Source: an uncultured bacterium
GTDB taxonomy: Bacteria; Patescibacteriota; Minisyncoccia; Minisyncoccales; RBG-13-42-11
Reading direction: 5' to 3'
NCBI GenBank assembly: GCA_963790795.1
Contig: CAWBPO010000001.1
Coordinates: forward strand, 38,675-102,674
DNA length: 64,000 nt
Made by a program: the position numbers and the translations under genes
Notes under the pieces: generated by a model
Database searches by the model: none
The model's input: the letters and a program-made list of their open reading frames with translations, nothing else
Told to the model about the DNA's origin: nothing
Shown: positions 13,701 through 54,850 of the stretch, one piece after another
Position numbering within the stretch: position 1 is the first letter of the stretch
Layout: each line of letters starts with the position of its first letter

Positions 13701-13970
13701 GACCAGCTTTGTTTTGACTCTTAAAGAACCTTCGAAAGAATCGTTGTTTTGCTTTGCCTCTAGATCAGTTTTATATTTTGATTCTTCCAATTTAAAATTT
13801 AAAAACCAAAGTTCAAGCTCTTTGCCAGTATAATCTTTAATCGGAGAAATTTCCTGGAAAAGCTCTTTCAAGTCCCTGTCCCAAAACAGCTGCCAGTTGT
13901 CTTTTTGTATGGAGATCAAGTAAGGAAGAGAAAGGGAAACTTTTGCTTTTGTGAAGTTTTTAGTCTTCAT
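10721..13970 (-). CDS. rpoB: DNA-directed RNA polymerase subunit beta, split into two ORFs (12267..13970 and 10721..12340) by a 1-nt frameshift in a T4 run (A4 on - strand) at 12270-12273
   Basis: Upstream ORF ends ...SCIPFLAK*(TGA), downstream frame continues ...[16 protein letters not shown]; deleting one A from gcaAAAAtgac restores ...[15 protein letters not shown] (cf. conserved [15 protein letters not shown]). Confidence 0.9.
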
Positions 13971-24283: not shown

Positions 24284-26419
24284 CTATGGCGAGAGAGGTG
24301 CATTCACCAAATACACCACCTGTTGAGTCAACGGTGGTAGTGCTGTTGGTTGAGCAGTCAGCATTGGTGCACTGGACAATTTGAGGTCTTCGTTGGTACC
24401 ATCATAATAACTAATCCTGGCAAAACCATCATCAGCTATGGCGAGAGAGTTGTAGTACCCCACATCACCTGATGAGTCAACAGTGGTTTTCTGCCAAGAA
24501 GAAGTGAAGGTAGTGAGGATGTTTGAAGAATCTTCTCCGATTAAGACGCTGTTTCCAAATTTGGCGCTTTGGTTAACGAGAAGTGAGCCATCAGTAATAA
24601 TGTTACCTTCAACCCCAAGAGAACCGGCTACAAATAAGTCATTGCCATCGGGGTTGAAGGAAATATCATTAGTAAATCGGGCAAATTTGAGGTTGGCGTT
24701 TTGTTCCACATAATCATATTCAAAATAACTAATCCTGGCAAAGCCATCTGAACCTATAGCGAGAGAGGTGTATTCACCAAATACACCACCTGTTGAGTCA
24801 ACGGTGGTAGTGCTGTTGGTTGAGCAGTCATCATTGGTGCACTGGACCAATTTGAGTTCGCCGTTGGTATCATCATAGTAACTAATCCTGGCAAAGCCAT
24901 CATCAGCTATGGCGAGAGAGGAGCCATTCCCACCCGTTGAGTCAACAGTGGTAGCGTTCTTGGTTGAGCAGTCATCGTTGGTGCACTGGACGAATTGGAG
25001 GTTTCCGTTGTCATAATCATAATAACTAATCCTGGCAAAGCCATCATCAGCTATAGCGAGAGAGTTGTAGTACCCCACATCACCTGCTGAGTCAACAGTG
25101 GTAGTGCTGTTGGTTGAGCAGTCATCGTTGGTGCACTGGACGAACTTGAGGTTAGAGATTTCCTCCACCTCATCCCAATAAGCGTAACTAATCCTGGCAA
25201 AGCCATCATCAGCTATAGCGAGAGAGTTGTAGTACCCCACATCACCTGCTGAGTCAACAGTGGTAGTGCTGTTGGTTGAGCAGTCATCATTGGTGCACTG
25301 GACGAATTGGAGGTTTCCGTTGTCATAATCATAATAACTAATCCTGGCAAAGCCATCATCAGCTATAGCGAGAGAGATATCTTCTACCCAATTACCTGTT
25401 GGGTCAACAATGGTAGCGTTCTTGGTTGAGCAGTCATCATTGGTGCATTGGACGAATTGGAGGGAGCTGTTGTAAGTATTATAATAACTAATCCTGGCAA
25501 AACCATCTGAACCCATAGCGAGGGAGGTGTAAGGTCCTACATTACCTGATGAATCAACGGTGGTGATACTTTTGGTTGAGCAGTCATCATTGGTGCACTG
25601 GACGAATTGGAGGTTTTCGTTGGTATCATCATAGTAACTAATCCTGGCAAAGCCATCATCAGCTATGGCGAGAGAGGGAGGGATGTCTGCCGTACTATCT
25701 ACTGAGTCAACAGTGGTAATAAAAATTGACGAGACAGAACTGGTAACTGTATTAATATTTCCGCCAATGAAGACATTGCCGGAGGTATCCAAAACCAGGA
25801 CTTTTTCATTGGACCCAATTTGAAACTGAATTGGTCTTATTTCCCCAGTGCCACTGGCTGAAGTAGAAATGGTTAAAGCATCTCCTCCAGAAGAATCATA
25901 GTTAATAGTTATTTGACTAAGAGAAGGACTGCTGCTCGTGGAAGTAGTCTTTAGTCCGCCAGTAAAATCTAAAGTATCAACCGAAATTGACCAGCCGCCA
26001 GTCGCTTCCCAATTGACATCGGAAATATTGTTAAAGTTAGCTCCTGACATTAGATTAGCTGAAATCCCGAAAGCCTGGTCTAAAGCTCTCTCTTGGGAAT
26101 TGACTGAGGCGGCGGTCCAGGTTTCTTGAGAATAGGTCGCATTGGAGTTGTATTTCCAAGTTCCAGAATCATTTTTGGCTATGCTTCTCCACTGGGATTG
26201 ACCTAAACCAAAGACCTTCCAGATAGTTCTATCATCAAAAGAAACGGCATAATAAATGGTTTGAGAATTTAAAGTTTCGGTAATGGCTCCTGAAATTATA
26301 TTTAGCCAGCTGGAAGTATCGATTTGATTACTGTCAGTAGTTGAGAGAATATAATATTCATCGGAAGGATAAATTTCAGTGCCCGTGATTCCCAGACCAC
26401 GGCATTGCTGTAATCCCAA
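24284..26419 (-). CDS. fragment of fibre protein: beta-rich N-part, GIGTT-type linker, ~12 FVQCTNDDCST 40-aa repeats
   Basis: 711 aa; same frame as upstream ORF 26438..27472, separated only by TAG at 26438-26440. Confidence 0.55.
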   Translation of the reverse strand: MGLQQCRGLGITGTEIYPSDEYYILSTTDSNQIDTSSWLNIISGAITETLNSQTIYYAVSFDDRTIWKVFGLGQSQWRSIAKNDSGTWKYNSNATYSQETWTAASVNSQERALDQAFGISANLMSGANFNNISDVNWEATGGWSISVDTLDFTGGLKTTSTSSSPSLSQITINYDSSGGDALTISTSASGTGEIRPIQFQIGSNEKVLVLDTSGNVFIGGNINTVTSSVSSIFITTVDSVDSTADIPPSLAIADDGFARISYYDDTNENLQFVQCTNDDCSTKSITTVDSSGNVGPYTSLAMGSDGFARISYYNTYNSSLQFVQCTNDDCSTKNATIVDPTGNWVEDISLAIADDGFARISYYDYDNGNLQFVQCTNDDCSTNSTTTVDSAGDVGYYNSLAIADDGFARISYAYWDEVEEISNLKFVQCTNDDCSTNSTTTVDSAGDVGYYNSLAIADDGFARISYYDYDNGNLQFVQCTNDDCSTKNATTVDSTGGNGSSLAIADDGFARISYYDDTNGELKLVQCTNDDCSTNSTTTVDSTGGVFGEYTSLAIGSDGFARISYFEYDYVEQNANLKFARFTNDISFNPDGNDLFVAGSLGVEGNIITDGSLLVNQSAKFGNSVLIGEDSSNILTTFTSSWQKTTVDSSGDVGYYNSLAIADDGFARISYYDGTNEDLKLSSAPMLTAQPTALPPLTQQVVYLVNAPLSP

Positions 26420-34216: not shown

Positions 34217-37200
34217 CTACATCGCCTGCTGAGTCAACGGTGGTGATGTTCTTGGTTGAGCAGTCATCATTGGTGCACTGAACGAATTTGAGCTAGCGAT
34301 TTCGTCCTCATCATAATAAGTGTAACTAATCCTGGCGTAGCCATCATCAGGGCTGATAGCGAGAGAGGTGAATTCGCCTACATAACCTGCTGAATCAACA
34401 GTGGTGATGTTCTTGGTTGAGCAGTCATCATTGGTGCACTGAACGAATTTGAGGTCTTCGTTGTTTTCATCAAAGTAACTAATCCTGGCAAAGCCGTCAG
34501 AGCCAAGAGCCAAGGAGGTGTAGAGCCCTACATTACCTGAGTCAACAATGGTAATGTTCTTGGTTGAACAATCATCATTGGTGCACTGAACGAATTTGAG
34601 GTCGCCACCGGAATGATCAAAATAACTAATCCTAGCAAAACCGTCGTCAGGGTTGATGGCGAGAGAGGTTTGTGTACCTACATTACCTGTGTCAACAGTG
34701 GTAATGTTCTTGGTTGAGCAGTCATCATTGGTGCACTGAACGAATTTGAGGTTTTCGTTGGTACCATCATAATAACTAATCCTGGCAAAGCCGTCGTCAG
34801 GGTTGATGGCGAGAGAGGTGTATTCGCCTACATAACCTGCTGAGTCAACGGTGGTGATGTTCTTGGTTGAGCAGTCATCATTGGTGCACTGAACGAATTT
34901 GAGGTAGCCGTTGTCACCCTCATAATAACTAATCCTGGCAAAGCCGTCGTCAGGGTTGATGGCGAGAGAGGTGTATTCGCCTACATAACCTGCTGAATCA
35001 ACAGTGGTGATGTTCTTGGTTGAGCAGTCATCATTGGTGCACTGGACGAATTTGAGGTCGCCGTTGGTGTCATCCTGATAACTAATCCTGGCGTAGCCAT
35101 CATCGGGGCTGATAGCGAGAGAGGTATAGTAACCTACCTCACCTGTTGAGTCAACAGTGGTTCTCTGCCAGGAAGAAGTGAGGGTAGTGAGGATGTTTGA
35201 ATAATCTCCCCCGATTAAAACGCTGTTTCCAAATTTGGCGCTTTGATTAACAAGAAGTGAACCATCAGTAATAATATCTCCTTCAATCCCAAGAAAACCG
35301 GCTACAAATAAGTCATTGTTATCGGGGTTGAAGGAAATATCACTAAGTCGGGCGAATTTAAGGTCGTAGTTACTATTATTATAGTAACTAATCCTAGCGT
35401 AACCATCATCAGGGCTGATGGCGAGAGAGGTGTCATGTCCTACATCACCTGCTGAGTCAACGGTGGTGATGCTCTTGGTTGAGCAGTCATCATTGGTGCA
35501 CTGGACGAATTTGAGGTCGCCGTTGCCATCATCATAATAACTAATCCTAGCATAGCCATCATCAGGGCTGATGGCGAGAGAGGTGAATTCGCCTACATAA
35601 CCTGCTGAATCAACAGTGGTGATGTTCTTGGTTGAGCAGTCATTATTGGTGCACTGGACGAATTTGAGGTCGTAGTTGTCATAATCACAATAACTAATCC
35701 TGGCAAATCCGTCAGAACCAAGAGCCAAGGAGGGAAAGGGCCCTACAAAACCTGCTGAATCAACAGTGGTGATGTTATTTTCTGAGCAGTCAGCATTGGT
35801 ACATTGGACGAATTTAAGGTCATTACTACTACTATCATAATAACTAATCCTGGCAAGGTTTTCAGAATCTAAAGCTAAGGAGGTGCCCCCTAGAGAAACA
35901 GAATCAACGGTGGTGATGTTCTTGGTTGAGCAGTCATCATTGGTGCACTGGACGAATTTAAGGTCGTAGTTACTATTATCATAGTAACTAATCCTGGCAA
36001 AGCCGTCAGAACCCAGAGCTATTGAGGTATAGCTTCCTACTAAACCAGCTGAGTCAACGGTGGTGATGCTCTTGGTTGAGCAGTCATCGTTGGTGCACTG
36101 GACGAATTTGAGGGCACTATTGCTAAGATCATAGTAACTAATCCTGGCATAGCCGTCGTCAGGGCTGATGGCGAGAGAGGTGTATTCGCCTACATCACCT
36201 GCTGAGTCAACGGTGGTGATGTTCTTGGTTGAGCAGTCATCATTGGTGCACTGGACGAATTTGAGGTCTTCGTTGTCATAATCACAATAACTAATCCTGG
36301 CAAATCCGTCAGAACCTAAAGCTAAGGAGGTGTCTCTCCCTACATCACCTGCTGAATCAACAGTGGTGGTAAAAATTGGCGAAGCGGAACTGGTAATTGT
36401 ATTGCTGTTCCCGCCGAGAAAAGTATTACCTATAACTGTAAGTTTCTCCGCCGGCTCCGTCGTCCCGATGCCGATATTTGTTCCTAATTGGTAGATAGTT
36501 GATGTGCCAAGGGCGGTGTCAGAAGTCCAGAGAGGAAGATAATTTGTTTGTCCTCCAGAAATTGTTGGAGCTGTAGTTGTTCCCCAGACGCCCGCATCAA
36601 TATACGGAACACCTGTCCAGGAGATAGTGCTTGTTCCTGTGCCGCCGTAGGCTGAGCCAATTGCCGTACCTTTCCAAACGCCCGTGGTGATGTCGCCGTT
36701 GTTGGCAATGGTGAAGATGCTGCTTGTGGCGTTGCTGAAATTGGCAATTGTTCCTGTTTCAGACTGGATAACGGTTAGGGCTGTGTTAGCGGAAGCGGCT
36801 TTAATGTTGAAAATATATTCTTCGGTGGCGCCGGCACCGGTTCTGTTGCCGTAAATAACCGTCCCTGTCCCCGAATTATTGAAAGAACCCGTGCCGAAGT
36901 CGTCGTCATAAATGTCATTATTGACAACCAAATTTCCGTCAGACGCGGCATCAGAAATATTAATCCCGTAGCGCGGCACGTTAGCCAACGCCCCGGCCCG
37001 ACAGGTGTTACCCTGAATGTTATTGTGGTCCGATTCAGATAGGTAAATATCATCATAAGTATTATCAGTGTCTTGTGAATTTTCGGTTAAGGTATTGTCA
37101 GAGATAGTGTTGTTATCGCTAGTGTAAAGGTAAATTCCGTATGAGCCATTCTCCTGACATGTGTTGCCTAAGATGGTGTTGTTGTTGGAGGTGTCCTCAA

Positions 37201-38413
37201 TGTCAATGCAAATATCGCCATTCCCCTGGCTGGTGTTGCCTGAGATGGTGTTGTTGTTGGAGGTGTGAAGTTCAATACCAGCACTACTGTTCCCCTGGCT
37301 GGTGTTGCCTGAGATGGTATTGTTGTCGGAGGCATAAATTGTAATGCCATTTTCATTCCCCTGGCAAGTATTGCCTGAGATGATGTTGTTGTCGGAGGTG
37401 TCAAGTGCAATGCCGTCGCCATTCCCCTGGCTGGTGTTGCCTATTAACGTGTTGTTGTTGGAGGCGTTAAGATTAATACCACTACCATTTTCCTGGCAGG
37501 TATTACCTATTAGCGTATTAAAATCTGAAAGTTCAAGATAGATACCATCCCAGTAGCCGTCAGATGGTGCCTGGTTTCTTCTTGAATGCACATTCTGGAT
37601 AAAACTGTAGTCTACATATGAAAATAATATACTGGCGTCGCTTAAATAAGAGGTGCCGCCGTCTAATTGAAGGTCGGTTATGATTATCCCTGTTTTTTCC
37701 GTACCGGCTCCGCCTACAGCGCTTAAAAATATAAGACCATCGGTTGAGGTAGTGAGGATGGTATTTCTGCCGTCTCCTCTGAGAGTTTGGTTAGAATCTA
37801 AATTAATAGTGGCTTCAACGTTGTAAGTTCCATCAAGGAGGCGGACTTCTCCGCCAGTAGCCGGCAAAGCGTCAATCGCCGCTTGTATCTGTACATGGTC
37901 GTCTACGCCATCACAGACATAATCTGCTTTTTCTTTGTTCTGAGAATCATTAGCTGCTACAATCTTTGTCACCACCGTTCTGTCTGCCTGCCATTTACTG
38001 CTATCAAAAATATAAAGCTGGTGAGTACTGGTGCTGAAAAACATCTGGCCTTCAGCAGCAGTAGAGGTAGCTGGTAAGGTTCCAGCGCCAGTTAATCTAA
38101 GCCATTTGTCAGCCGCTAAAGTAACATTGCCTACGATACTGACATTTCCTCCATCTGCAATAGTAAAGACTGGGGTTCCAGCATCTTTGAATTCTACAAT
38201 GTTGCCATTTCCTGATTGATTGACGGTTAGGGCGGCAGCAGTTGAAGAAATTGAAATTTCTTTCTTTTCTTCTAATTTTACTGTGGCAGTATCTAATTCA
38301 TAATAAAAATTGGCGGCAAAAACCAAACCAGCCACGACTATTCCTGGCAAAATAGCTAAAACAACCCTTTTCCAGGTTTTTTCCCTGTTTAGTTTTAACC
38401 TCCAATTAAACAT
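34217..38413 (-). CDS. giant signal-anchored surface fibre protein: N-terminal TM anchor (FAANFYY), right-handed parallel beta-helix (PbH1) repeats, GIGTTEP motif, >25 FVQCTNDDCST 40-aa repeats
   Basis: 1398 aa; PbH1-like NNTISGNTSQGNG.GI repeats; last 25 aa (SSNSFSAPMMTAQPRTSPPLTQQAM) are an out-of-frame reading. Confidence 0.65.
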   Translation of the reverse strand: MFNWRLKLNREKTWKRVVLAILPGIVVAGLVFAANFYYELDTATVKLEEKKEISISSTAAALTVNQSGNGNIVEFKDAGTPVFTIADGGNVSIVGNVTLAADKWLRLTGAGTLPATSTAAEGQMFFSTSTHQLYIFDSSKWQADRTVVTKIVAANDSQNKEKADYVCDGVDDHVQIQAAIDALPATGGEVRLLDGTYNVEATINLDSNQTLRGDGRNTILTTSTDGLIFLSAVGGAGTEKTGIIITDLQLDGGTSYLSDASILFSYVDYSFIQNVHSRRNQAPSDGYWDGIYLELSDFNTLIGNTCQENGSGINLNASNNNTLIGNTSQGNGDGIALDTSDNNIISGNTCQGNENGITIYASDNNTISGNTSQGNSSAGIELHTSNNNTISGNTSQGNGDICIDIEDTSNNNTILGNTCQENGSYGIYLYTSDNNTISDNTLTENSQDTDNTYDDIYLSESDHNNIQGNTCRAGALANVPRYGINISDAASDGNLVVNNDIYDDDFGTGSFNNSGTGTVIYGNRTGAGATEEYIFNIKAASANTALTVIQSETGTIANFSNATSSIFTIANNGDITTGVWKGTAIGSAYGGTGTSTISWTGVPYIDAGVWGTTTAPTISGGQTNYLPLWTSDTALGTSTIYQLGTNIGIGTTEPAEKLTVIGNTFLGGNSNTITSSASPIFTTTVDSAGDVGRDTSLALGSDGFARISYCDYDNEDLKFVQCTNDDCSTKNITTVDSAGDVGEYTSLAISPDDGYARISYYDLSNSALKFVQCTNDDCSTKSITTVDSAGLVGSYTSIALGSDGFARISYYDNSNYDLKFVQCTNDDCSTKNITTVDSVSLGGTSLALDSENLARISYYDSSSNDLKFVQCTNADCSENNITTVDSAGFVGPFPSLALGSDGFARISYCDYDNYDLKFVQCTNNDCSTKNITTVDSAGYVGEFTSLAISPDDGYARISYYDDGNGDLKFVQCTNDDCSTKSITTVDSAGDVGHDTSLAISPDDGYARISYYNNSNYDLKFARLSDISFNPDNNDLFVAGFLGIEGDIITDGSLLVNQSAKFGNSVLIGGDYSNILTTLTSSWQRTTVDSTGEVGYYTSLAISPDDGYARISYQDDTNGDLKFVQCTNDDCSTKNITTVDSAGYVGEYTSLAINPDDGFARISYYEGDNGYLKFVQCTNDDCSTKNITTVDSAGYVGEYTSLAINPDDGFARISYYDGTNENLKFVQCTNDDCSTKNITTVDTGNVGTQTSLAINPDDGFARISYFDHSGGDLKFVQCTNDDCSTKNITIVDSGNVGLYTSLALGSDGFARISYFDENNEDLKFVQCTNDDCSTKNITTVDSAGYVGEFTSLAISPDDGYARISYTYYDEDEIASSNSFSAPMMTAQPRTSPPLTQQAM

Positions 38414-38552: not shown

Positions 38553-40436
38553 TTAGTTGATTCTATCGTAGGCAGCCAAAAAGATCTGGAAAACTTTGAT
38601 CTTATTATCATCGTAATTGGGTTGAGATTTGACCTCTAACCACCAATCTGTCCCATCGGTAGGAATAGCAACTGTGCCAGTGGTTGTAGCTATTCCTGAA
38701 TCCAAAGCCGAGTTGTCGCAACCGCCTAAAGTGAAGGTGCTGTAAGCAGCGCCGGTAGTTGTGGCTACTCGCCAATCAGTAGTAGAAGCAAGAAGGAGAT
38801 TATCAGTATATCTGATGACGAATTTATGAATTCTGGTTGTTCCTGTCGTAGTTGCAATGAAGGGATAGTCTTGGATAGTCCGAGAAATCTTAACATAACT
38901 GGTAGTAGCGGTCTGGGCGGGCAAATCAAATCCGAAAATCGGAATCATTTCTCGCAAAATCTCGGTATTCTGTTTCCCAATTTCATATCCTGAGGCAGTT
39001 TGAATATAATCACCGCTTCCAAGAGTTATCTTTCCTGAGGCCGGGTCTAAAATAATATCATTGCTTCCGACTGAAGAAATGGTTGTCGTGGCGCCAGAAG
39101 TATACGTAACCGCACCTGTTCCTGTATATAAGGCTGAACTTACTCCTCCACTTCCACTTACTACCAAATTATAGGCAATGGTTGTGGTCCCGGCAGAATC
39201 GATAGTTAAAGCTGTCCCAGTGTAGTTGTCCACGATTGAGGAATCTTCCAATTCTGTAGAGTCTTTCCATCTGGAAACTTTTCCTGCCGTACCCGAACCA
39301 ATAACTGCGCCCGTACCCGTCGCAGCCTTCCAAGTCAAAACACCTGTTCCATCAGTGGTTAAAACATAATTATTGCTGCCAGTATTTGGGGGCAAATAAT
39401 AAGTGGTATTTGCCACCATTGTTGAAGTAGGATTAAAAATGACTTCATAATCAGTTCCGCCTTGTTCTGAGTAAATTCTGAGTTGACCGCTTGTCCCTGC
39501 TATTCCGGTTCTGATTGCGCCCTTCACCTCGAGAGGATAAGTTAAACTATTGGTTCCTATTCCTAATCGATTAGTGCTGTCATCCCAGAAAAAATTGGCA
39601 TTATCTTCGCTAAGAACACCGCCTGCCCCGGCGAAAATAACCCCGCCAGTAGTAGGATTAAACCAGGTTGGAATTCCAGTGCCTCCAGAAACTAATGCCT
39701 GACCAGAAGTACCAGCAGCAGAGATTCCGTAGGTTGAACCTGTCCCATAAACCATTCCTCCAGCAGTGGGAGAAGTGGATGTTCCAGTTCCACCATAAGT
39801 CGTAGCCAAAGGGCTAGTTAATCCAATTACTCCTGCTGCTGATAAGGTAATAGGGGCTGTAGATGAAACTGCCACTGTTCCTGAAGTATCAGGAAGGGTG
39901 TAAGTTCTCGCTCCGGTTAAATTAGCAATAGTTAATTGTCCTCTGCCTTCAGCATCGTAAAACCATAAACTCGTTCCCTGGGTTCCGCCAGAGGTAAAAG
40001 CATCTCCTGAGGTAACATTGCCAACTGCAGTGATATCTCCCACTCCGCCTGTACTCGTGGCTAACTTCCAAGTAAGTTGGTCCCCTGCTTGCCAAGTCAA
40101 AACATAGTCGGCACTTGGAGGATTCACATCGTGCGCAGGAAGATAATAAGTTTTACTTGTAGATATTGTTGTCGTTGCTTCCAGTCCAACATAATAACTT
40201 GTGCCTCCGGTAAATTTCAAGGCTTGGTTTGCTCCAGAAATAATAATATCTTTAGTCACGTTTTGAACTTCCTCCATTACTATTTGTCCTGTGTCAATGT
40301 TGTAGTACATATTGGCCGCAAAAAGAACTCCGGCAGCAATCAACACTGAAGAACCGATAAACAGAAAAGAGGCAAATCTTGTTCCTTTAGCCAGTTTTAA
40401 TTTCGATTCAAAGAATTTTCTAAATGGATTTTTCAT
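38553..40436 (-). CDS. signal-anchored Gly/Thr-rich tail-fibre-like surface protein with conserved C-terminal domain
   Basis: 627 aa; N-term anchor ...VLFAANMYYNIDTG (same motif as 34217..38413), GIGTNS/GIGTT motifs, C-terminal domain paralogous to that of 40542..42761 (IPIFGFDLPAQTATTSYVKISR / IKVFQIFLAAYDRI). Confidence 0.6.
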   Translation of the reverse strand: MKNPFRKFFESKLKLAKGTRFASFLFIGSSVLIAAGVLFAANMYYNIDTGQIVMEEVQNVTKDIIISGANQALKFTGGTSYYVGLEATTTISTSKTYYLPAHDVNPPSADYVLTWQAGDQLTWKLATSTGGVGDITAVGNVTSGDAFTSGGTQGTSLWFYDAEGRGQLTIANLTGARTYTLPDTSGTVAVSSTAPITLSAAGVIGLTSPLATTYGGTGTSTSPTAGGMVYGTGSTYGISAAGTSGQALVSGGTGIPTWFNPTTGGVIFAGAGGVLSEDNANFFWDDSTNRLGIGTNSLTYPLEVKGAIRTGIAGTSGQLRIYSEQGGTDYEVIFNPTSTMVANTTYYLPPNTGSNNYVLTTDGTGVLTWKAATGTGAVIGSGTAGKVSRWKDSTELEDSSIVDNYTGTALTIDSAGTTTIAYNLVVSGSGGVSSALYTGTGAVTYTSGATTTISSVGSNDIILDPASGKITLGSGDYIQTASGYEIGKQNTEILREMIPIFGFDLPAQTATTSYVKISRTIQDYPFIATTTGTTRIHKFVIRYTDNLLLASTTDWRVATTTGAAYSTFTLGGCDNSALDSGIATTTGTVAIPTDGTDWWLEVKSQPNYDDNKIKVFQIFLAAYDRIN

Positions 40437-40504
40437 AGTTATTTAATTATATTAGTTAATTATTTTTTCGACCTTTATAATTTTTTATATTTTTTTCGAC
40501 CTTT

Positions 40505-40533
40505 CCGAGTACATAACTTAGTTATGTGCTCGG
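40505..40533. repeat. perfect-type palindrome CCGAGTACATAA-cttag-TTATGTGCTCGG (empty-site homolog of the inverted repeats flanking the GIY-YIG gene)
   Basis: 12-bp arms 11/12 complementary; intergenic between the two tail-fibre-like genes. Confidence 0.7.
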
Positions 40534-40541
40534 TGAATTTA

Positions 40542-42761
40542 TTAAATTTGGTCATAAATTAAAAGAAAAATGCTGAAAATTCGAATGGTATTTCCCGAAG
40601 GAACTTTCACTTTTAGCTGCCAATTGTTTTCTGGGGGTTGGATAAAAATACTCAAATTAGGGATACCTTCATCAAGAGAAGAGAGATTCTGGCCAGCAAA
40701 ATAAAATTCGATATCAGTTCCGCCAGTCAAATCAACCAGCCAAGTAGAACTAGCTGAAGTCGAGATACCGTCAGCAAAATTTGTTAAAAAAGAAAATTTT
40801 CTGGTTGCCCCCGGAAGGATATCGGGTAAAGTAGCATTCAAAGTAGAGGTGGAAATTTCTCTTGAAACGGCGACAAATTCGGTGGAAGTGGTTTGGGCTG
40901 GAACCGAATAGATAAAAATTGGGATGCTGGCTTGAAAAACCTTCTCGCCAGATTTTCTTACTGTCGAGTCGGAAGCTCCTGAAATAAAAGTCGCTCCTTT
41001 TACGGTAGCTGAAGAGGCGTCAAAAAGATTAACGCCACCAGCCAACCTAATTTCACCAGTTAAAGAATTTATTACCATTGTTTTTGAGGATAAAAGTTCA
41101 GACGAGGTTGAGTTAATTAAAAACCTTAAATAATTATTATTGTCGTATTCCAAAGTTAATTGAGGAAAAGTGGAAGTAGCTATAGTAAGAGGACCTTCAA
41201 AGCGCCCATCTCCGGCAACGGTGAGAGTAGCCAAGGTGGAGGTAGTGCCAATTCCTATTGCGGAGCCAGTATTATAAAGAAAATAGTCGGCCAGCCAATT
41301 TGTGCCATTATGTCTTAAAGTTTGACCAGCTGTTCCGGAAGGAAGAACGCCTGAAGGTGCGGATTGCCAAGTTCCAAAACCGAAAGCATCTGAGGTTAAA
41401 ATATAACCTGAAGTGGCATTAGTCGGAAATTGAAAACCAAGCATCTTTATTGTTCCAGCCACATCTAACTTTTGAGATGGAGTGGTGGTGCCTATCCCGA
41501 TATTTCCACCACTTTGAGAAACAATAGAATTTCCTAAAGCGGTTTCCCCGGTCCAGACCGAAAAATAATTGGAAGAGCCCGAACCGCTAATACCAGCAAA
41601 ACCTCCTCCTCCCCCTCCTCCTCCCACCGGCAAAGTGCTTAAACATCTGCCGCCTGCCAAATTAGTACAAATATCACCGGTCGCCTGAATTCTTCCGTTA
41701 ACATCGAGAGCATAAACCGGATCTTTTTTCCCTATACCAACATTCCCTGTCGAAGCGATGGTAATTGAAATTCCCTGATAAAGGTCAACTATAGAAGAAT
41801 CATCAATTCTTTGAGGACTAACAAATTTGGCTAATCTATTGAGAGTACCGCCAGGAGTAAGAACTTCTTCACCTAAACCAACGCAATTACCAGTAGAAAG
41901 ACAAACTATGCCTGATTGATTGGGGAAAGTATAAATCCTGTCAGTAGTGAGAGTAGTCAAAGTAAGAAGCCCTTTAAAACCTCCTTTGGTTATAATAAAA
42001 GCAGGAGAGCTTACGGATTCTTTCACATTTAAAGAACCATTAATAGCCGTTTCGGCATTGATAGTAAGATAAGGTTCAATAGGAGGGGTAACAAGAATTT
42101 CTTCTTGGGGAGGAGAAGGTGACAATTGGGTTAATTTTCTAACTTCGCTGCCTATGCTAGCTAAGAAATAGGAAATTGAATCTACAAAATTAATTTTTGC
42201 GTTTATGTTTATAAAGAAAACAATTAAACCAAAAATTAAAACCATAAATATCGGTTTGAGAAAAGAGGATAATCTGAAATGTGGTTTCAGTTTTTTCTCG
42301 GGTTGAACTTCTTCCTTGATCCCAGAAGGTAAACGAGAAGGTGTGTCATATACATGTATAGGCAAAGACGGAGCAAAAGGCGTTTCAAATAACCTTTCTT
42401 CTAAACTTTCTTTCTTTTTCTCTTCTTTTTCTTTCTCTTCTTTTATTTCTCTTTTTATTGTTTGAATGCTTTTTCCAGCTTTTATTTTCCTATTAATTTC
42501 AATTAAAAGCGCTACCGCATCTTCTGGATAAGCTCCTTCTGGATGATTATTATTAAAAGATTTTCTTTGGGCGTGAGGTAAAAGTCCGATTTTTGTATAA
42601 TAACGCAAGCGGTTCCGAGGATCTCCATTCCCAAAAACAACTCCTAATTTTTGAGCCCGGTTAATAATTTCATCAATACTTATTAAATTTTCATCTTCTC
42701 TCCCCATATACTTATTGAACGTGGAGGCTTGACAAATCTTTTGGTTTCTTTTAAACTTCAA
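40542..42761 (-). CDS. membrane protein: N-terminal cytoplasmic MerR-like HTH, single TM helix, extracellular Gly-rich tail-fibre-like domain with shared C-terminal domain
   Basis: N-term ...ISIDEIINRAQKLGVV...RNRLRYYTKIGLLPHAQR...GAYPEDAVALLIEINRKIKAGKSIQTIKREI (MerR-type pattern LRYY..IGLL.P.R...G.Y.EDAV.LL), TM LKPIFMVLIFGLIVFFININ, Gly9 tract, GIGTTTP motifs; track start is TTG, ATG start likely at MGREDEN (~42707). Confidence 0.55.
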   Translation of the reverse strand: MKFKRNQKICQASTFNKYMGREDENLISIDEIINRAQKLGVVFGNGDPRNRLRYYTKIGLLPHAQRKSFNNNHPEGAYPEDAVALLIEINRKIKAGKSIQTIKREIKEEKEKEEKKKESLEERLFETPFAPSLPIHVYDTPSRLPSGIKEEVQPEKKLKPHFRLSSFLKPIFMVLIFGLIVFFININAKINFVDSISYFLASIGSEVRKLTQLSPSPPQEEILVTPPIEPYLTINAETAINGSLNVKESVSSPAFIITKGGFKGLLTLTTLTTDRIYTFPNQSGIVCLSTGNCVGLGEEVLTPGGTLNRLAKFVSPQRIDDSSIVDLYQGISITIASTGNVGIGKKDPVYALDVNGRIQATGDICTNLAGGRCLSTLPVGGGGGGGGFAGISGSGSSNYFSVWTGETALGNSIVSQSGGNIGIGTTTPSQKLDVAGTIKMLGFQFPTNATSGYILTSDAFGFGTWQSAPSGVLPSGTAGQTLRHNGTNWLADYFLYNTGSAIGIGTTSTLATLTVAGDGRFEGPLTIATSTFPQLTLEYDNNNYLRFLINSTSSELLSSKTMVINSLTGEIRLAGGVNLFDASSATVKGATFISGASDSTVRKSGEKVFQASIPIFIYSVPAQTTSTEFVAVSREISTSTLNATLPDILPGATRKFSFLTNFADGISTSASSTWLVDLTGGTDIEFYFAGQNLSSLDEGIPNLSIFIQPPENNWQLKVKVPSGNTIRIFSIFLLIYDQI
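42728..42756 (+). promoter_or_regulatory. consensus sigma70-like promoter (TTGACA - 17 bp - TAAACT) on + strand inside the 5' end of the - strand gene
   Basis: exact -35 hexamer, 17-bp spacer; would fire into the 650-bp AT-rich intergenic region. Confidence 0.3.
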
Positions 42762-42909
42762 ATTAGAAGGCCCGCCATCCCGCCATACAAATTATGGTGA
42801 GACAAAAAAGCGACTAAAAAACTTTTTTCCAACATTTGGCCGTTTTGTGCGGACCTTCTTTTTTTTATACAATTAAATATAGATTCTATATAAATCCTTC
42901 TGAGAAATT

Positions 42910-42930
42910 TTTCCCGTCACGGGAAATTTT
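42910..42930 (+). terminator. hairpin TTTCCCG-tca-CGGGAAA followed by TTTT (intrinsic-terminator-like, + strand)
   Basis: 7-bp perfect stem + U tract; no annotated + strand gene upstream. Confidence 0.35.
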
Positions 42931-43415
42931 GAGATTAGTTCATAATATAAATACCAAAAGGCTCTGTCAAGGGTAAAATTGTGGAAAACTCTAACAACTA
43001 AACAGTGCAAGAATCCCTATATTCTATATTCCAGATTCCCATTCATAATTCTTCATTCTTGATTCATTATTTATTCTCAATTCTCATTTATTTTTTTAAA
43101 AAACATAAAAACATAGAATTATATACAAAGTTTGAAAATTGAACCATATCTAACTTTGCACGTTCTTATATATAAAGTTTGAAAACTGAACCAGAGATAT
43201 ATTATTATCTTTAAACAATTTAAACAACCTCGGGCTTTGTTCAAAACATACTTTAATAGTTCAATTTTTAAACTTTTTTAAAATATACCAAATTTTAGCG
43301 TGCAGGTTTATCAAAAAGATTGGTTTAAAAATTATACACATAGTTTGAAAAACGAACTAAATATGTTATAATTTTAAATGAGACGCTTTTAGCTTTTAAA
43401 CATATAAAATTATCT

Positions 43416-44141
43416 ATGCCTAACGAAATAAAATGCCCAAAATGTTTTAAATCAATTTTTTGGAAAACCAATGATGATCGTTTGAAATGCAAAAACTGCC
43501 ATTATATTTTTACCTTAAGACCCAATCCCCTTAATATTCCAGACAAAATATTAAGCGAGGTTATTTCCGAATTCCTTTTAGAACATTCAACAAATATTAT
43601 TCTAGAAAGAGTAAATATTTCCAAATATAAACTTTTAAAAGTGTTATTTTTTTTAAGAATATTAATAACTAAAGACATTCCCGACAATCTCCGTGAAATA
43701 ATAAAGTTTGATTCGGAAAATTTTACATTAGATAATAAAATCAAAAATCCAATTATCGGCATTCTTTACAAAGAAGAAAAAGTTTATGCTAAAGTTTTAT
43801 CAAATATTAAGCCCGAAGATTTAAAGCTTTTCCTTGGGGCTCAAGAAAAAAAGGAAGTAATTAACTATTCCGAAAATTGGCAAAAATATATCGGCTTGGC
43901 GTTTAGGGGCCGTCTTTATAAAATAACTCCCTCGCAAAATAAAAATCATATTGATGCCCTTGAAACATTCTGGGGATATTTAAAAATGAAGCTATCCTCA
44001 AAAGGAGGAATTCGTAAAGAAAGATTACCTCTTTACCTCGGAGAATATATCTGGAGATACAATCACAGAAAACTAATCTTAAAAGAACAAGGAAAATGCT
44101 TATTAAATCTTGTTTTTCAATATTTTAGGTCCGAAAATTAA
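43416..44141 (+). CDS. compact IS1595-family (ISXO2-like) transposase-like protein with N-terminal Zn ribbon
   Basis: CPKC...KCKNC Zn-ribbon; C-terminal HIDALETFWGYLKMKLSSKGGIRKERLPLYLGEYIWRYNHRKL matches IS1595 DDE C-terminal signature (TNtiEgfWs.lKr...G.yh.vs.khL..Yl.Ef.fRyN.R); only 241 aa, central DDE region divergent (YSENW for YTDEW). Confidence 0.55.
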   Translation: MPNEIKCPKCFKSIFWKTNDDRLKCKNCHYIFTLRPNPLNIPDKILSEVISEFLLEHSTNIILERVNISKYKLLKVLFFLRILITKDIPDNLREIIKFDSENFTLDNKIKNPIIGILYKEEKVYAKVLSNIKPEDLKLFLGAQEKKEVINYSENWQKYIGLAFRGRLYKITPSQNKNHIDALETFWGYLKMKLSSKGGIRKERLPLYLGEYIWRYNHRKLILKEQGKCLLNLVFQYFRSEN

Positions 44142-52519: not shown

Positions 52520-54850
52520 TTATTTTTGAATCTCAATTTCGGGTGGAGTTTCTTGGATGGGAGGTTGGGAAAGAGTTATCCCTTCTAAAGCTGGTAAACC
52601 TTTTTCAAGATTTTCCAAAATTTTCTTTATCTCTTGGTTTTGGGGATTCAATTGGGCCAATGTCTCAAATTCCTTTTTGGCTTTTTCTTTCTTCCCCATT
52701 TTATCGTAAACTAAGCCCAACATATATCTAGCATTAGAATAATCGGAATTTAAATTTACCGCCCTCTCAAATTCTTCTTGAGCTTTTTCGAATTGCTGCG
52801 ATCTCCAATAAAGCGACCCCAGTTGAAAAGCTACTCCCGGATCTTGAGGGGTAATTGTTTTTGTTTCCTCCAATTTCGAAATCGCCTGGTCGCTTTCTCC
52901 TTGTTGGTCATAAACCACTGCCAAAAGATAATGAGCGGGGGCATAATCCGGTTTTAATTCAATGGCAGCTTCTAGATTTTCAACTGCCAGGTCAAGATTT
53001 TCTCGGCGAAGTTCTTCTTGTCCTTTTTGAGAAAGTCCTTGAGCTATTAAAATATAAACTCTTCCTCTTTCCCCGAAAGCGAAAGGAGAGGCAGGTTCCA
53101 ATTGGATTGCTTTTTGATATGAACCCAGGGCTAATTCTCCTCCTCCTTCAATTCCAATTAAGTTCCGGTAAAAAAATCCTCTCACATTCCAATTGGCGAC
53201 ATTCATTGGGGCGGCATTTATCGCTTGGTTTATGGCTCCAGCTCCATCGACAATTGCCAGATTGGCTAACCTTCTCTTTTCTTCAAGAGATAAATTAGGG
53301 TCTTGGGAAATTAAATTAGTTTTAGCCAGATAAAGTTGAGAGAGATCTCGCCAATAAGTATCGATAGAGGGATTTAACTCTCCTGCTCTCTTTATATGAT
53401 CAATCGCTTGAGTAAGGTTTCCAGCCTGAGAAGCTTCAACCCCTTTTAAATATTTCATTTCGGCAAAATATTTCTGTCCCTGAAGAAAAAATAAACTCAA
53501 ACTGAAAATAATAACTATTATCAAAATTGAGTTTGCAAAAATCATTTTAGAAGGAGAAGAAAGATTTATCTGGGTTAATTTCGGGCTAAAATAGAACAGA
53601 AATCCACCGACAAAAAACCAGAAAATGAAATAAAGGACAAAATTAAATGGATAAAAGAAGCTGGCAACAATTAAACTTAGAATTCCAGCCACCAATCCAA
53701 GTTTTATTTCAAAAAAATCTTCTTTACCCTCAATTTTTCTTAAATATTTTAAAAGCGAGCGGATTATTAAAAGATAAAGAAAGAGCAAACTGATTCCCCC
53801 CAAGACCCCTTTAGTTAAAATCCAATCTAAAAATGTTGAATTTCCTTTCAAAAATCTCGTTCCCCAAAATATCGTCTGATTAAGTAAGGGAGAATGATAT
53901 TGAGAATAGTCAAAAACGAAAGTTCCGGGCCCTGTTCCTAAAATTATATTTTTCACTCCTTCGCTGAAGGCGCCTTTTAAAATATAAATTTCCGAGCTAG
54001 GATTAAGAGAAACTTCAAGGGGCAAAATAGGAAATCCCGGCAAGGGAATTGGAAAGAAGTAGAAAAAGATAGAAAGAATTAACCCAGCCATTAGAAAGGA
54101 AACTAAACTTAGCTTGATTTTCTCTTTTTGATTTCCAAAGCTAAAGATAAATAAAACTAAAATACCAACTATTAAACTAATCCAAGCAGTTTTAAAATTT
54201 ACTAAAATAACATTTCCAAAGAGAACAAAAGTAATTACTCCTAAAATTATTTTTAAAAAACTTTTTGCTCTAAAGGTTAGAAGTAAAGATAATGGTAAAA
54301 GAGCGACTGCAAAAATAGCAAAACTGTTTGTGGTTCCAATGGTATTAAAAGAAGAGATTCTTGTAAAATCAAACGGAAATGGGAAGATTTTATAAAGTTG
54401 GAAAATATTAATGATTCCACAAATTCCTCCCGATAAAAGGAGGGGGAATAATAAAGAAAGGAATTCATTTTTTGTCTCAAGGGAGTTGATGATGAGAAAA
54501 GCTAAAATTAAAAAGGAAAAGAAAAAGAGAAAACTATCGGCAATATCTAAAGGAAGACCCCAAAAAGAGGCTTCTGGCCAAAAAGAAAAGAGACAAGAAA
54601 ATAAAAGAGAGAGAAAAATTAGAAAGAAAGAAAAATAAAAAATTTTATTCTCTCTTAAGACTAATTTCCCTTCGAATATCTTTTTCCCCAGCCAGCCAAT
54701 TAAACTCAGAAAAATCAAGATTAAAGCTAAAGATTGTTTTGGAAAATCCAAAACATCTTGAGTAAAGGGTAAGAAGAAAATGGGAATTAAAAATAAAAGT
54801 AAGTAAAGGGGAATTTTATTTAATTTATTAAAAAAGGAAACCAAGTTCAT
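52520..54850 (-). CDS. polytopic membrane protein, O-antigen ligase-like core with C-terminal TPR repeats (paralog of 14178..16514)
   Basis: 776 aa; N-terminus and overall architecture parallel 14178..16514; 5+ TPR units at C-terminus. Confidence 0.55.
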   Translation of the reverse strand: MNLVSFFNKLNKIPLYLLLFLIPIFFLPFTQDVLDFPKQSLALILIFLSLIGWLGKKIFEGKLVLRENKIFYFSFFLIFLSLLFSCLFSFWPEASFWGLPLDIADSFLFFFSFLILAFLIINSLETKNEFLSLLFPLLLSGGICGIINIFQLYKIFPFPFDFTRISSFNTIGTTNSFAIFAVALLPLSLLLTFRAKSFLKIILGVITFVLFGNVILVNFKTAWISLIVGILVLFIFSFGNQKEKIKLSLVSFLMAGLILSIFFYFFPIPLPGFPILPLEVSLNPSSEIYILKGAFSEGVKNIILGTGPGTFVFDYSQYHSPLLNQTIFWGTRFLKGNSTFLDWILTKGVLGGISLLFLYLLIIRSLLKYLRKIEGKEDFFEIKLGLVAGILSLIVASFFYPFNFVLYFIFWFFVGGFLFYFSPKLTQINLSSPSKMIFANSILIIVIIFSLSLFFLQGQKYFAEMKYLKGVEASQAGNLTQAIDHIKRAGELNPSIDTYWRDLSQLYLAKTNLISQDPNLSLEEKRRLANLAIVDGAGAINQAINAAPMNVANWNVRGFFYRNLIGIEGGGELALGSYQKAIQLEPASPFAFGERGRVYILIAQGLSQKGQEELRRENLDLAVENLEAAIELKPDYAPAHYLLAVVYDQQGESDQAISKLEETKTITPQDPGVAFQLGSLYWRSQQFEKAQEEFERAVNLNSDYSNARYMLGLVYDKMGKKEKAKKEFETLAQLNPQNQEIKKILENLEKGLPALEGITLSQPPIQETPPEIEIQK

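Follow-up and report, generated by a model that had tools for sequence, protein, structure and literature searches.

A membrane-anchored fibre protein of Patescibacteria with a divergent MerR-like domain and a candidate palindromic operator beside its gene

Can a fibre protein of the cell surface also be a regulator of transcription? This question is raised by gene A, in which a predicted DNA-binding domain, a membrane anchor and a fibre-like ectodomain are joined in one reading frame, and by gene B, which has the anchor and the fibre alone. Both lie in the 64-kb window (the whole stretch of DNA analysed here) of an ultra-small Patescibacteria (CPR) bacterium, and an earlier note on this DNA had proposed that gene A is a one-component transmembrane signalling device or a membrane-held regulator of the fibre locus.

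Two fibre genes and their anchors

Both claimed ORFs exist on the minus strand, with 627 aa and, counted from TTG, 739 aa. The features of the two genes and of the giant neighbour are as follows:

40542..42761, minus: gene A as mechanical ORF, 739 aa from TTG 42761
40542..42707, minus: gene A, likely real extent, 721 aa from ATG 42707
42441..42689, minus: predicted MerR-like winged HTH, cytoplasmic, residues 25-107 of the 739-aa ORF
42267..42440, minus: Lys/Glu-rich helix, then Pro-rich linker, residues 108-165
42210..42266, minus: single transmembrane helix of gene A, residues 166-184, hydropathy 2.47, N-in
40944..42209, minus: extracellular G/S/T-rich shaft with three (V/I)GIG motifs, two Cys pairs and Gly8
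40545..40943, minus: C-terminal knob, residues ~607-739, predicted TNF/C1q-like jelly-roll beta-sandwich
40505..40533, no strand: 13-bp hairpin directly past the gene A stop, T-run on the plus strand only
38553..40436, minus: gene B, 627 aa, paralogue of gene A without the HTH
40320-40376, minus: transmembrane helix of gene B, residues 21-39, K/R 6 before and 0 after
from about 38963 down to 38556, minus: knob of gene B
38309..38365, minus: transmembrane anchor of the 1398-aa gene (34217..38413), VFAANFYY right after

The public gene call, like the mechanical ORF, starts gene A at TTG 42761. ATG 42707 is probably the true start: the homologues begin there, and TTG 42761 follows the 3' arm of a conserved RNA stem at a distance of 4 nt.

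The Gly/Thr-rich fibrous middles ascribed to both proteins were borne out by composition (G 12%, S 11% and T 11% in residues 200-739 of gene A; T 17% and G 13% in residues 60-627 of gene B), and the GIGTT.P-type motifs were recovered as (V/I/L)GIG, three in gene A and one in gene B. The GIG motif is repeated at the DNA level in 9 genes of the island at 21.8-42.8 kb (family D13). The gene A shaft also has two conserved Cys pairs (CLSTGNC and CTNLAGGRC) and a glycine tract, which the earlier note gave as Gly9 at ~41603-41630 and which is actually Gly8 at 41601-41624 (three GGA codons, GGG, three GGA and GGT); this tract is in frame, so that its length can change and its phase cannot. The label "tail-fibre-like" is a fair one: the gene A shaft matches tail-fibre PHROG phrog_9942 (E 2.9e-9, residues 334-642; gene B had no PHROG match), the xGIGTxxP motif and the shaft-plus-knob layout are those of phage tail fibres, and this type of knob tops trimeric fibres. 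Unlike phage tail fibres, genes A and B are chromosomal and their proteins are anchored by an N-terminal transmembrane helix; ATP synthase, rpoBC, recA and ftsK flank them with synteny kept in other genomes, and there are no phage genes.

Structure prediction of the common C-terminal domain, which the earlier note had suggested, gave a TNF/C1q-like jelly-roll knob, confidently predicted for the ends of both genes. The AF2 model of the gene A knob has a pLDDT of 92.3, the top Foldseek matches in the PDB are the TNF-like lectins PLTL and BC2L-C-Nt, ExsF/BxpB and the Sf6 tail-needle knob, and the BFVD matches include collagen-repeat, tail-fibre and C1q-domain proteins. As in gene A, the jelly-roll of the BC2L-C N-terminal lectin, Photorhabdus PLTL, Bacillus exosporium ExsF/BxpB and the Sf6 knob (in gene A predicted, about 135 residues) is distal on a fibrous protein, whereas the likeness of gene A to TNF/C1q-like knobs is at the fold level only (TM 0.35-0.55, 10-16% identity). 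By sequence the knob belongs to a tiny family, and its database matches number 19. Related loci L017 and L024 have a different distal tip, an FGE/C-type-lectin-like domain of a kind diversified by DGRs, which likewise points to ligand binding at the fibre tip.

Paralogy of genes A and B and their common C-terminal domain were confirmed by BLASTP (E 8e-21): about 300 residues at the C-terminal end align with 28% identity, and this region takes in the IPIF...AQT...IFLxxYDxI domain. Gene B has a short K/R-rich N-tail, the transmembrane helix, an LFAANMYY anchor, a T/G-rich shaft and a knob as in gene A. Its more than 200 homologues, mostly in Parcubacteria, are all unnamed or "hypothetical", and in L003 its orthologue comes after that of gene A. 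The anchor motif said to be common to gene B and the 34217 gene is indeed present in both (LFAANMYY and VFAANFYY), each time right behind the transmembrane helix, and gene B is best read as a plain structural paralogue, alike in knob and type of shaft, on a generic K/R-transmembrane-LFAANxYY anchor also used by the neighbouring giant protein.

The N-terminus of gene A and its family

The N-terminus of gene A, described earlier as a MerR-type HTH, appears to be a divergent MerR/TnrA-like winged HTH, as supported by profile searches and a fold model. Pfam MerR and MerR_1 matches were found in 9/11 and 7/11 family members (best 1.9e-7), whereas the gene A protein, taken alone, does not reach the curated thresholds: it scores 16.9 vs 28.2 and 15.9 vs 21.6 over its whole length, and 20.7 vs 21.6 as an isolated domain. 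A profile search of the PDB placed MerR 4ua1 first (E 0.0014), with TnrA, GlnR and NmlR as the next matches; with the AF2 model (pLDDT 82), Foldseek returned NmlR, MerR-family 3gpv, SoxR, BmrR and CarH on top, with probabilities of 0.84-0.98, weak E-values (0.03-0.1) and TM about 0.5. The best sequence and fold matches thus lie in the MerR family, and like the minimal TnrA/GlnR and the sensor-less NmlR, gene A has the winged HTH, the RxRYY-x3-G-L-L-P signature, the wing and two further helices. It differs from them in the HTH turn, where about 6 residues that canonical MerR HTHs lack are inserted between helix 1 and the recognition helix, in the coiled-coil dimerisation helix, which is not conserved in the family, and in having no cytoplasmic effector domain. 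Conservation is highest in the core GV.FG.GDP.NRLRYYTKIG.LPH..RK, and the NRLRYYTKIG recognition helix is the most conserved protein segment in long and short forms alike: R33, R35, Y36, Y37, K39, R48 and K49 of the recognition helix and wing are invariant in an 11-sequence alignment, and the basic and aromatic residues there are 70-99% conserved across 75 proteins.

Simple topology rules place this segment in the cytoplasm rather than outside the cell. Gene A has no signal peptide and, as claimed, one transmembrane helix, and the predicted N-in topology of genes A and B follows from the enrichment of K/R ahead of the helix (in gene A 4, against 1 behind it). Of the ~90 cytoplasmic residues proposed earlier, the location held and the length did not, the cytoplasmic part being about 147 aa (the MerR-like domain and a flexible linker of some 60 aa). 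The linker segment shows no conservation within the family. A poly-purine tract at 42407-42454, which extends into the end of the MerR-like domain, encodes its Lys/Glu part (residues about 103-119), and in the L001 orthologue the corresponding tract contains a frameshift.

The family is restricted to Patescibacteria; GTDB species genomes contain 101 relatives. Full-length orthologues are present in L003, L008, L015, L021, L027 and L010, that of L003 (Cand. Nealsonbacteria) having 74.6% identity over 732 aa. Among 1.84 billion representatives the family profile retrieved 317 clusters (50% identity; 63 to 3068 aa) and did not draw in canonical MerR proteins. In these clusters the MerR-like domain is almost always N-terminal and one transmembrane helix nearly always comes next (of 74 parsed family members, nearly all have it 100-190 aa into the protein), while the ectodomains span about 100 to >2,700 aa and differ in their tips.

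Promoter, palindrome and leader RNA

A search of 42762-43415 for MerR-type operator palindromes, as proposed in the earlier note, located one, between a predicted promoter and a structured leader:

42942..42988, minus: predicted gene A promoter, consensus match
42980-42988, minus: TTTTCCACA box upstream of the -35
42965-42970, minus: -35 TTGACA, 17-nt spacer to the -10
42942-42947, minus: -10 TATTAT
42911..42925, no strand: perfect palindrome TTCCCGTGACGGGAA (TTCCCG-N3-CGGGAA), 16 nt downstream of the -10, candidate operator
42766..42858, minus: 5'-leader RNA, three-way junction, z-score -4.4

The promoter is the best match (11/12) in 20 kb, and its layout is the same in long-form loci. The TTTCCACA box occurs once in the window; its distance upstream of the -35 is 9-11 nt in 10 loci and 19 nt in an eleventh.

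A single exact copy of TTCCCG-N3-CGGGAA is present in the window. Related loci (996 kb) contained 27 exact palindromes against 0.06 expected, and none of the 27 was more than 850 nt away from the gene start; with at most 1 mismatch there were 62 near the gene and 4 far from it (2 of the 4 being bookkeeping artefacts). At this stringency the palindrome was found upstream of about 25/29 long or truncated-long genes, and in control 450-nt windows of background it was reached in 1/205. Most of the short forms (~47 genes) have it 7-55 nt past the stop with at most 2 mismatches (39/45 complete ones). Altogether the HTH-transmembrane design was found in more than 70 related Patescibacteria genomes, in almost all of which the palindrome adjoins the gene. 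In long-form loci, including the window, the palindrome lies at about +10 to +24 from the predicted gene A transcript start; in short-form loci it precedes the -35 box of the following gene by about 8 nt. Its half-sites are invariant, its 3-nt spacer is variable and its stem lacks covariation, so that it fits a protein-DNA site better than an RNA hairpin. We regard TTCCCG-N3-CGGGAA as the likely candidate for the cognate operator of the MerR-like domain on these sequence grounds; it could also belong to another, unlinked regulator. MerR-family operators are palindromic as well, but they lie in a 19-20-bp promoter spacer, whereas here the spacer is 17 bp and the candidate site is downstream of the -10 (long forms) or upstream of the -35 (short forms).

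The leader RNA consists of P1, with the arms GAAGGTCCGC and GCGGGCCTTC, of P2, which contains a conserved GCGCUUUUU strand, and of P3, a variable hairpin whose sequence is different in every locus. All twelve instances had z-scores of -3.7 to -7.95, with 0/200 shuffles as stable, P1 had 4 compensated pairs, and Rfam gave no match. Both this conserved three-way-junction leader and the palindrome accompanying the gene in related genomes were newly found here. If transcription starts as predicted, the palindrome would also form a 5'-terminal RNA hairpin.

Regulation from the membrane and its alternatives

We consider it reasonably probable that gene A encodes an autoregulating single-pass transmembrane transcription regulator that joins the cell surface to transcription. 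The HTH would bind TTCCCGTNACGGGAA as a dimer, and binding at +10 to +24 would repress or gate the transcription of gene A, possibly together with that of the downstream fibre genes (B, C and others). Since the MerR coiled-coil helix is not conserved in the family, we propose that the transmembrane helix and ectodomain supply dimerisation or clustering of the gene A protein. Fibre-tip assembly or ligand state may then set operator occupancy by the cytoplasmic domains in the manner of ToxR/CadC, and the lectin-like knob plausibly binds a host or surface glycan. The conserved architecture and the adjoining palindrome support the earlier proposal; that the fibre senses a signal and passes it on is what we infer. 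One point against this reading is that a TNF-like knob suggests a trimer and the palindrome a dimer.

Specific DNA binding without sensing, as a membrane tether of the fibre locus or nucleoid or as constitutive autoregulation, with a structural or adhesive ectodomain, seems unlikely to us. Such a tether might mark the co-translational insertion site of giant fibres or be a DNA anchor like B. subtilis RacA, in which MerR-like wHTH domains serve chromosome anchoring. A palindrome adjoining its own gene is what a cis-acting tether or simple feedback predicts, and ectodomains so different in length and tip are odd for one conserved signalling mechanism; however, just one or two sites occur per locus, and the short-form palindrome stands in a classical activator position, which points to transcription control beyond mere tethering. 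It is quite unlikely that regulated proteolysis in the linker or transmembrane helix releases the MerR-like domain to act in soluble form, in an anti-sigma/RIP-like way. The long, unconserved, Pro-rich and charged linker would suit such release, as would the stand-alone 110-114-aa versions of the domain in databases, but at least one of these, P0003, is a full-length gene broken in two by a frameshift in L001, an assembly in which further genes are split, and neither a site-2 protease nor a partner gene was found beside gene A in the window.

We think it very improbable that the palindrome is an RNA hairpin of a leader or 3'-UTR, or the site of another regulator, and that the domain has lost DNA binding and makes protein contacts like the HTH of RodZ. 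The long-form palindrome is predicted to be transcribed, a structured RNA comes after it, and the HTH turn is atypically long. Against this, the stem is invariant and shows no compensatory changes even between genomes whose proteins share only 40-78% identity, while the leader RNA beside it covaries freely; the short-form palindrome precedes the next promoter and is not part of the transcript made from it; and the seven recognition-helix and wing residues are conserved. An assembly or gene-calling artefact behind the HTH-fibre fusion, for which the short database entries might speak, has a negligible chance and was rejected: the fusion is one unbroken frame in the window, and dozens of independent assemblies show it again with identities of 40-78%, with full-length orthologues, that of L003 among them, and a transmembrane helix in nearly all parsed relatives.

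The transmembrane regulator that we favour for gene A resembles several known systems. RsgI-type anti-sigma factors and RodZ likewise cross the membrane once and combine a small regulatory or HTH domain in the cytoplasm with a large binding module outside the cell. RsgI, however, holds a sigma factor instead of binding DNA, the Xre-type HTH of RodZ binds MreB, and neither is known to have a linked palindrome, unlike gene A. The transmembrane transcription regulators (TTRs) ToxR, CadC and TcpP act on promoters from the membrane and are built in the same order as gene A, with a cytoplasmic DNA-binding domain at the N-terminus, then a disordered linker, one transmembrane helix and an extracytoplasmic C-terminal domain. 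Their DNA-binding domain is of OmpR type and their ectodomain a compact periplasmic sensor, in contrast to the MerR/TnrA-like domain of gene A and the knob-bearing fibres of its family, which can reach thousands of residues. A 2023 TTR census makes no mention of Patescibacteria in its text and in the supplementary files examined; among its 50,302 TTRs, single-pass forms were the commonest, and MerR (386) and MerR_1 (350) domains were present (PMC10269533).

Gene A, its paralogue and the N-terminal domain

Two neighbouring genes encode proteins with a fibrous shaft and a C-terminal knob:

38553-40436, minus strand: gene B, lacking a helix-turn-helix (HTH)
40542-42761, minus strand: gene A as publicly called, with a MerR-like domain, linker, transmembrane (TM) helix, fibre and knob

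The earlier note had taken A and B for paralogues, which was borne out by BLASTP (E 8e-21 across the last ~300 residues), and the C-terminal domain that it had them share indeed belongs to both; its sequence family is tiny, the 19 matches found in the database being unnamed or bearing only a 'hypothetical' or automatic label. Each protein has the single hydrophobic helix that had been described (residues 166-184 in A, 21-39 in B), and the anchor motif (L/V)FAANxYY directly after the TM helix is, as it had stated, common to B and a 1398-aa neighbour. Gene A read from TTG 42761, where the public gene call starts, encodes 739 aa, and gene B encodes 627 aa. We rejected this TTG in favour of ATG 42707, and A most likely comprises 721 aa, since its homologues begin at the position of ATG 42707 and the 3' arm of a conserved RNA stem is found 4 nt upstream of the TTG. 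The glycine tract reported as Gly9 exists at 41601-41624 and is a Gly8, encoded by an imperfect in-frame GGA repeat; phase variation through a (CCT)n tract was rejected, because the repeat is imperfect and in frame and its length merely differs among orthologues. A 13-bp hairpin follows the stop codon of A, with its T-run on the opposite strand.

The MerR-like HTH that had been proposed for A holds at the level of family and fold (Pfam in relatives, PDB profile, Foldseek). The gene A protein alone falls just under the Pfam cut-offs for MerR and MerR_1, an NCBIfam scan of it gave nothing beyond a faint TnrA match (E 0.038), and single-sequence phmmer of its N-terminal 210 aa against PDB returned a chance match only, so that a profile was needed. 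A search with the first 197 residues found 10 homologues, and in the resulting alignment of 11 sequences Pfam MerR was matched by nine and MerR_1 by seven (best 1.9e-7). The alignment profile matched Bacillus megaterium MerR best in PDB (4ua1, E 0.0014), followed by MerR-family 3gpv, TnrA, NmlR (HI_0186), and GlnR. The AlphaFold2 model of the domain (pLDDT 82) consists of a helix, a long turn, a helix, a two-stranded wing, and two further helices, and its best Foldseek matches in PDB, NmlR, 3gpv, SoxR, BmrR, and CarH, all belong to the MerR family (probability 0.84-0.98, with weak E-values and TM-scores of about 0.5). Therefore, the N-terminal domain of A is a divergent member of the MerR superfamily, nearest in size to the minimal TnrA/GlnR type.

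The domain departs from canonical MerR proteins in several respects. About six extra residues are found in the HTH turn of the A family (GVxFGxGDP), and MerR proteins have a C-terminal cytoplasmic effector-binding region, whereas in A what comes after the HTH is a linker, then a TM helix and the ectodomain. Over 75 proteins, conservation is 0.8-0.99 for GV.FG.GDP.NRLRYYTKIG.LPH..RK and 0.1-0.4 beyond about residue 85, and the long antiparallel coiled-coil helix (alpha5) through which MerR proteins dimerise does not appear to be conserved; the modelled helix at residues 81-106 is Lys/Glu-rich, with confidence down to 57-68.

Topology, ectodomain and the family of fusions

Hydropathy and the positive-inside rule predict an N-in, C-out topology for A and B, in both of which K/R are enriched before the helix. 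No signal peptide was found on A, and its 147-aa N-terminal part would not be exportable without one, which argues for a cytoplasmic DNA-binding domain. Transmembrane transcription regulators unite a DNA-binding domain with at least one TM segment in a single protein chain, as A does.

The shaft of A matched phrog_9942 'tail fiber protein' (E 2.9e-9) and phrog_3269 (2.1e-5) in PHROG, and the same search with B gave no match. The shaft is therefore related in sequence to phage tail fibres, but a phage or prophage context is absent around A. The shared C-terminal domain (residues 607-739 in A) is modelled as a jelly-roll beta-sandwich (pLDDT 92.3), with its best PDB matches to the TNF-like lectins PLTL and BC2L-C-Nt, exosporium ExsF/BxpB, and the Sf6 tail-needle knob, a likeness at fold level only (TM 0.35-0.55); in a viral structure set it matched collagen-repeat, tail-fibre, and C1q-domain proteins. 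The modelled knob would fit a trimeric fibre bearing a distal binding knob.

The fusion recurs throughout the family. A scan of one genome per species recovered 101 relatives, all in records titled as Patescibacteria lineages or in evidently mislabelled MAGs, and an exhaustive profile search of 1.84 billion representatives gave only 317 clusters (252 below 1e-10), with the domain at the N-terminus in almost all cases and proteins of up to 3068 aa. In the 74 loci in which the gene could be parsed, almost all proteins have a single TM helix, set 100-190 residues from the N-terminus. Short forms (214-246 aa, ectodomain ~100 aa) occur mainly in WWE3, and long forms range from 500 to >2,700 aa. Orthologues that match A over its full length, shaft motifs and knob included, are present in L003 (74.6% identity), L008, L010, L015, L021, and L027, while the long forms of L026 and L031 end in the short-form ectodomain and those of L017 and L024 in an FGE/C-type-lectin-like domain. 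Four database proteins (P0030, P0031, P0036, P0073) show two matched stretches or have the domain 90-200 residues from the N-terminus, which suggests tandem duplication of the putative MerR-like domain or an N-terminal extension.

A stand-alone 112-aa 'MerR regulator' (P0003) was rejected as evidence of a split system, being the product of a frameshift in a poly-purine Lys/Glu tract of the full-length L001 gene; ATP synthase beta and the B orthologue are split in the L001 assembly too. An artefactual HTH-fibre fusion was excluded.

FGE/C-type-lectin-like C-termini are typical of the variable proteins of diversity-generating retroelements (DGR). A DGR in the window was rejected, as the window ORFs scanned yielded no reverse transcriptase (RT) and no TR/VR-like pair involves A or B; the knob of A is predicted to have a TNF-like fold. 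In L017/L024, the C-terminus of a 2620-aa gene (~15000-15845) reads GNVWEWV...GGGW...LGFRCCR, and a bAvd gene lies at 13541-13903 in L001, three genes downstream of its MerR-fibre gene, so some family members may have DGR-diversified tips.

Promoter, palindrome and leader RNA

An operator-palindrome search of the intergenic region upstream of A, where the earlier note had proposed to look for MerR-type operators, found a perfect palindrome (TTCCCG-N3-CGGGAA), the sole exact copy in the 64-kb window. The elements ahead of A are:

42980-42988, minus strand: TTTTCCACA box
42970-42942: predicted promoter of A (TTGACA, 17 nt, TATTAT), the best sigma-70-like match in 20 kb
42911-42925: candidate operator palindrome TTCCCGTGACGGGAA, 16 nt downstream of the -10 box
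42766-42858, minus strand: structured leader element of 93 nt, between palindrome and start codon

In MerR promoters the operator dyad lies in an over-long -35/-10 spacer of 19-20 bp and activation proceeds by DNA distortion, whereas the predicted spacer at A is 17 bp, and a MerR-type operator within it was not found. The palindrome is linked to the gene in more than 50 loci. The 996 kb of related loci contain 27 exact palindromes against 0.06 expected, all within 850 nt of the gene start, and with at most one mismatch 62 copies are near the gene and 4 far from it, two of the latter being bookkeeping artefacts. Long forms share one predicted promoter layout: a TTTCCACA box, 9-11 nt, TTGACA, 17 nt, (G/T)ATAAT, 11-20 nt, and the palindrome, often with a second palindrome copy 520-685 nt upstream beside a divergent gene.

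The TTTTCCACA box occurs once in the 64-kb window, resembles the palindrome half-site (TTTCC...), and precedes the -35 box by 9-11 nt in 10 long-form loci and by 19 nt in one more; extra copies are found near the start codon in L001, L011, and L027.

In short forms, the palindrome follows the stop codon by 7-55 nt and lies ~8 nt upstream of the predicted -35 box of the next gene, for example:

L035, 6859-6917: short-form locus with the palindrome upstream of the next -35 box
L041, 8664-8731: the same arrangement
L053, 8700-8754: the same arrangement

The product of this next gene is a polytopic membrane/TPR protein of ~750 aa; the predicted -10 box of the gene nearly abuts the ATG (only ~6 nt before it), so its mRNA is probably leaderless; the window has a homologue of it at 52520-54850. 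A second exact palindrome occurs inside the ORF just after the TM helix, translated as SRDGK, in L026 (8552) and L030 (8522), and may be a relic of the fusion of a short-form gene with its downstream neighbour.

The leader element recurs in 14 related loci, in each case 50-150 nt ahead of a long-form gene, and is cleanly absent from the closest relative, L003. Instances of ~80-125 nt include, among others:

L001, 9843-9935
L002, 9585-9675
L010, 4678-4763
L017, 7826-7952
L027, 709-799

All 12 instances folded gave a three-way junction, their z-scores lying between -3.7 and -7.95. From a MAFFT alignment RNAalifold returned the outer stem only, the inner stems coming from single-sequence folds; this outer stem has 10 bp, 4 of them with compensated changes, and the 3' hairpin differs in sequence in every locus. 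Since the outer stem is flanked by an A-run on its 5' side and a U-rich tract on its 3' side, the element may be an attenuator, or it may be a new cis-regulatory motif. Neither the leader RNA nor the palindrome region matched any Rfam family, and two weak matches inside coding sequence (mir-451, Na+ riboswitch) were rejected as chance.

The palindrome could in principle act at the RNA level, as its position within the predicted transcript of A would allow. However, its half-sites are invariant, only the 3-nt spacer varies and no compensatory changes were seen, in contrast to the RNA stems a few dozen nucleotides away, which covary freely. Moreover, in short forms the downstream transcript does not include the site, and the recognition helix of the protein is invariant. 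Taken together, these patterns point to a DNA site that the adjacent protein would recognise, that is, a candidate operator.

Possible mode of action and genomic setting

The domain identities, the predicted topology, the conserved architecture and the linkage of palindrome and gene were established computationally, and they confirm the earlier observation of a DNA-binding domain joined to a membrane-anchored fibre; its interpretation as a transmembrane signalling device or membrane-sequestered regulator is supported. We lean towards regarding A as a membrane-tethered, site-specific DNA-binding regulator that acts at its own promoter. The MerR-like HTH would bind the palindrome as a dimer, and occupancy at +10 to +24 would repress or gate the transcript of A itself. 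The family appears to lack the MerR coiled coil, hence pairing of the cytoplasmic domains would depend on the TM helix and ectodomain. By analogy with ToxR/CadC, the state of the fibre or knob might then feed into transcription, whereas a non-sensing DNA tether or a simple autoregulator would use the same domain and promoter site without any such input. Less probably, the MerR-like domain might be released by proteolysis.

Transcription factors are very scarce in Patescibacteria, whose way of life is attachment to host cells. A bolder and rather doubtful extension of the tethered-regulator reading is that the family forms a direct contact sensor, in which binding or tension at the lectin-like tip would alter the clustering of the MerR-like domains, which would then switch fibre and envelope genes through TTCCCG-N3-CGGGAA, with the leader RNA as a second layer of control; if true, a single protein would connect the host surface with the promoter, in a manner peculiar to this radiation.

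Transmembrane transcription regulators form a well-known class that occurs widely, and A has in common with them a predicted cytoplasmic DNA-binding domain, a C-terminus predicted to lie outside and a candidate DNA site at the promoter. The ToxR/CadC subfamily proper has an OmpR/PhoB-type winged helix (Trans_reg_C), whereas A has no Trans_reg_C match and is MerR-like. We place A in this class as a member whose MerR-like domain is divergent and whose ectodomain is a fibre, its candidate operator and leader RNA being newly recognised; in our literature search neither the A family nor its palindrome or fibre fusion was found described. Among the 50,302 transmembrane transcription regulators of a 2023 census, MerR (386) and MerR_1 (350) domains are represented, and Patescibacteria go unmentioned in its text and the supplementary files consulted (PMC10269533).

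The family widens the range of these regulators to giant fibre ectodomains and gives the MerR superfamily a further branch, divergent and bound to the membrane. Host sensing and the regulation of large surface proteins are largely unknown in the ultra-small, host-attached CPR bacteria, most of which, to our knowledge, cannot be cultured. The locus offers a testable regulatory module (a DNA-binding domain of ~85 aa, a 15-bp site, the promoter layout and the leader RNA), the components of which are conserved in several CPR lineages (Nealsonbacteria, Wildermuthbacteria, Woykebacteria, WWE3, and others), and for the pair of domain and site, in vitro assays or E. coli reporters would suffice, so that the organism need not be cultured.

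The window derives from Patescibacteria (CPR), the nearest relative of gene A is in a Candidatus Nealsonbacteria genome, and the gene content is chromosomal, with rpoB/rpoC, ftsK, recA, ssb, rpsF, dprA, ftsW, pilin-like genes, an ATP synthase operon, and a histidine kinase/response regulator pair. L001, L002, and L003 keep the synteny with ATP synthase. Given these housekeeping neighbours, the chromosomal context and the conserved synteny, a prophage origin of A and B was rejected. Both genes stand at the head of a ~21-kb minus-strand run of surface-protein genes (21.8-42.8 kb; 21838-42761), with a G+C content of 0.43-0.47 against 0.30-0.40 in the flanks and an N(V/I)GIGTTxP module common to 9 island genes, even at the DNA level.

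The island holds ~13 same-strand genes, including BNR/sortilin-like, LVIVD propeller, and endosialidase-like ones. In its giant 1398-aa protein (34217-38413, minus strand), a NosD/right-handed beta-helix region is accompanied by 16 or more repeats of ~50 aa that each contain a Cys pair (FVQCTNDDCSTKNITTVDS...ARISYYD), and the same repeat fills the genes at 24284-26419 and 23664-24239 (minus strand). Ogr_Delta and PyrI_C Pfam matches of the repeat proteins were dismissed as spurious, their source being the CxxxxC motif.

Divergent from A lies a degenerate IS1595-like ORF (43416-44141, plus strand) with a Zn ribbon and a weak DDE_Tnp_IS1595 match, which is not a random insertion, because a 50%-identical gene has the same divergent position in L001. 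In L001 and L002, a second palindrome copy lies ~25-30 nt upstream of the -35 box of this divergent gene, and in its place the window carries a promoter-like repeat of 28 nt, TTATATACAAAGTTTGAAAATTGAACCA, three times at 43119-43359. Finally, rpoB consists of two overlapping ORFs, 12267-13970 and 10721-12340 (minus strand; region 10721-13970), reflecting either an assembly frameshift or a real split.
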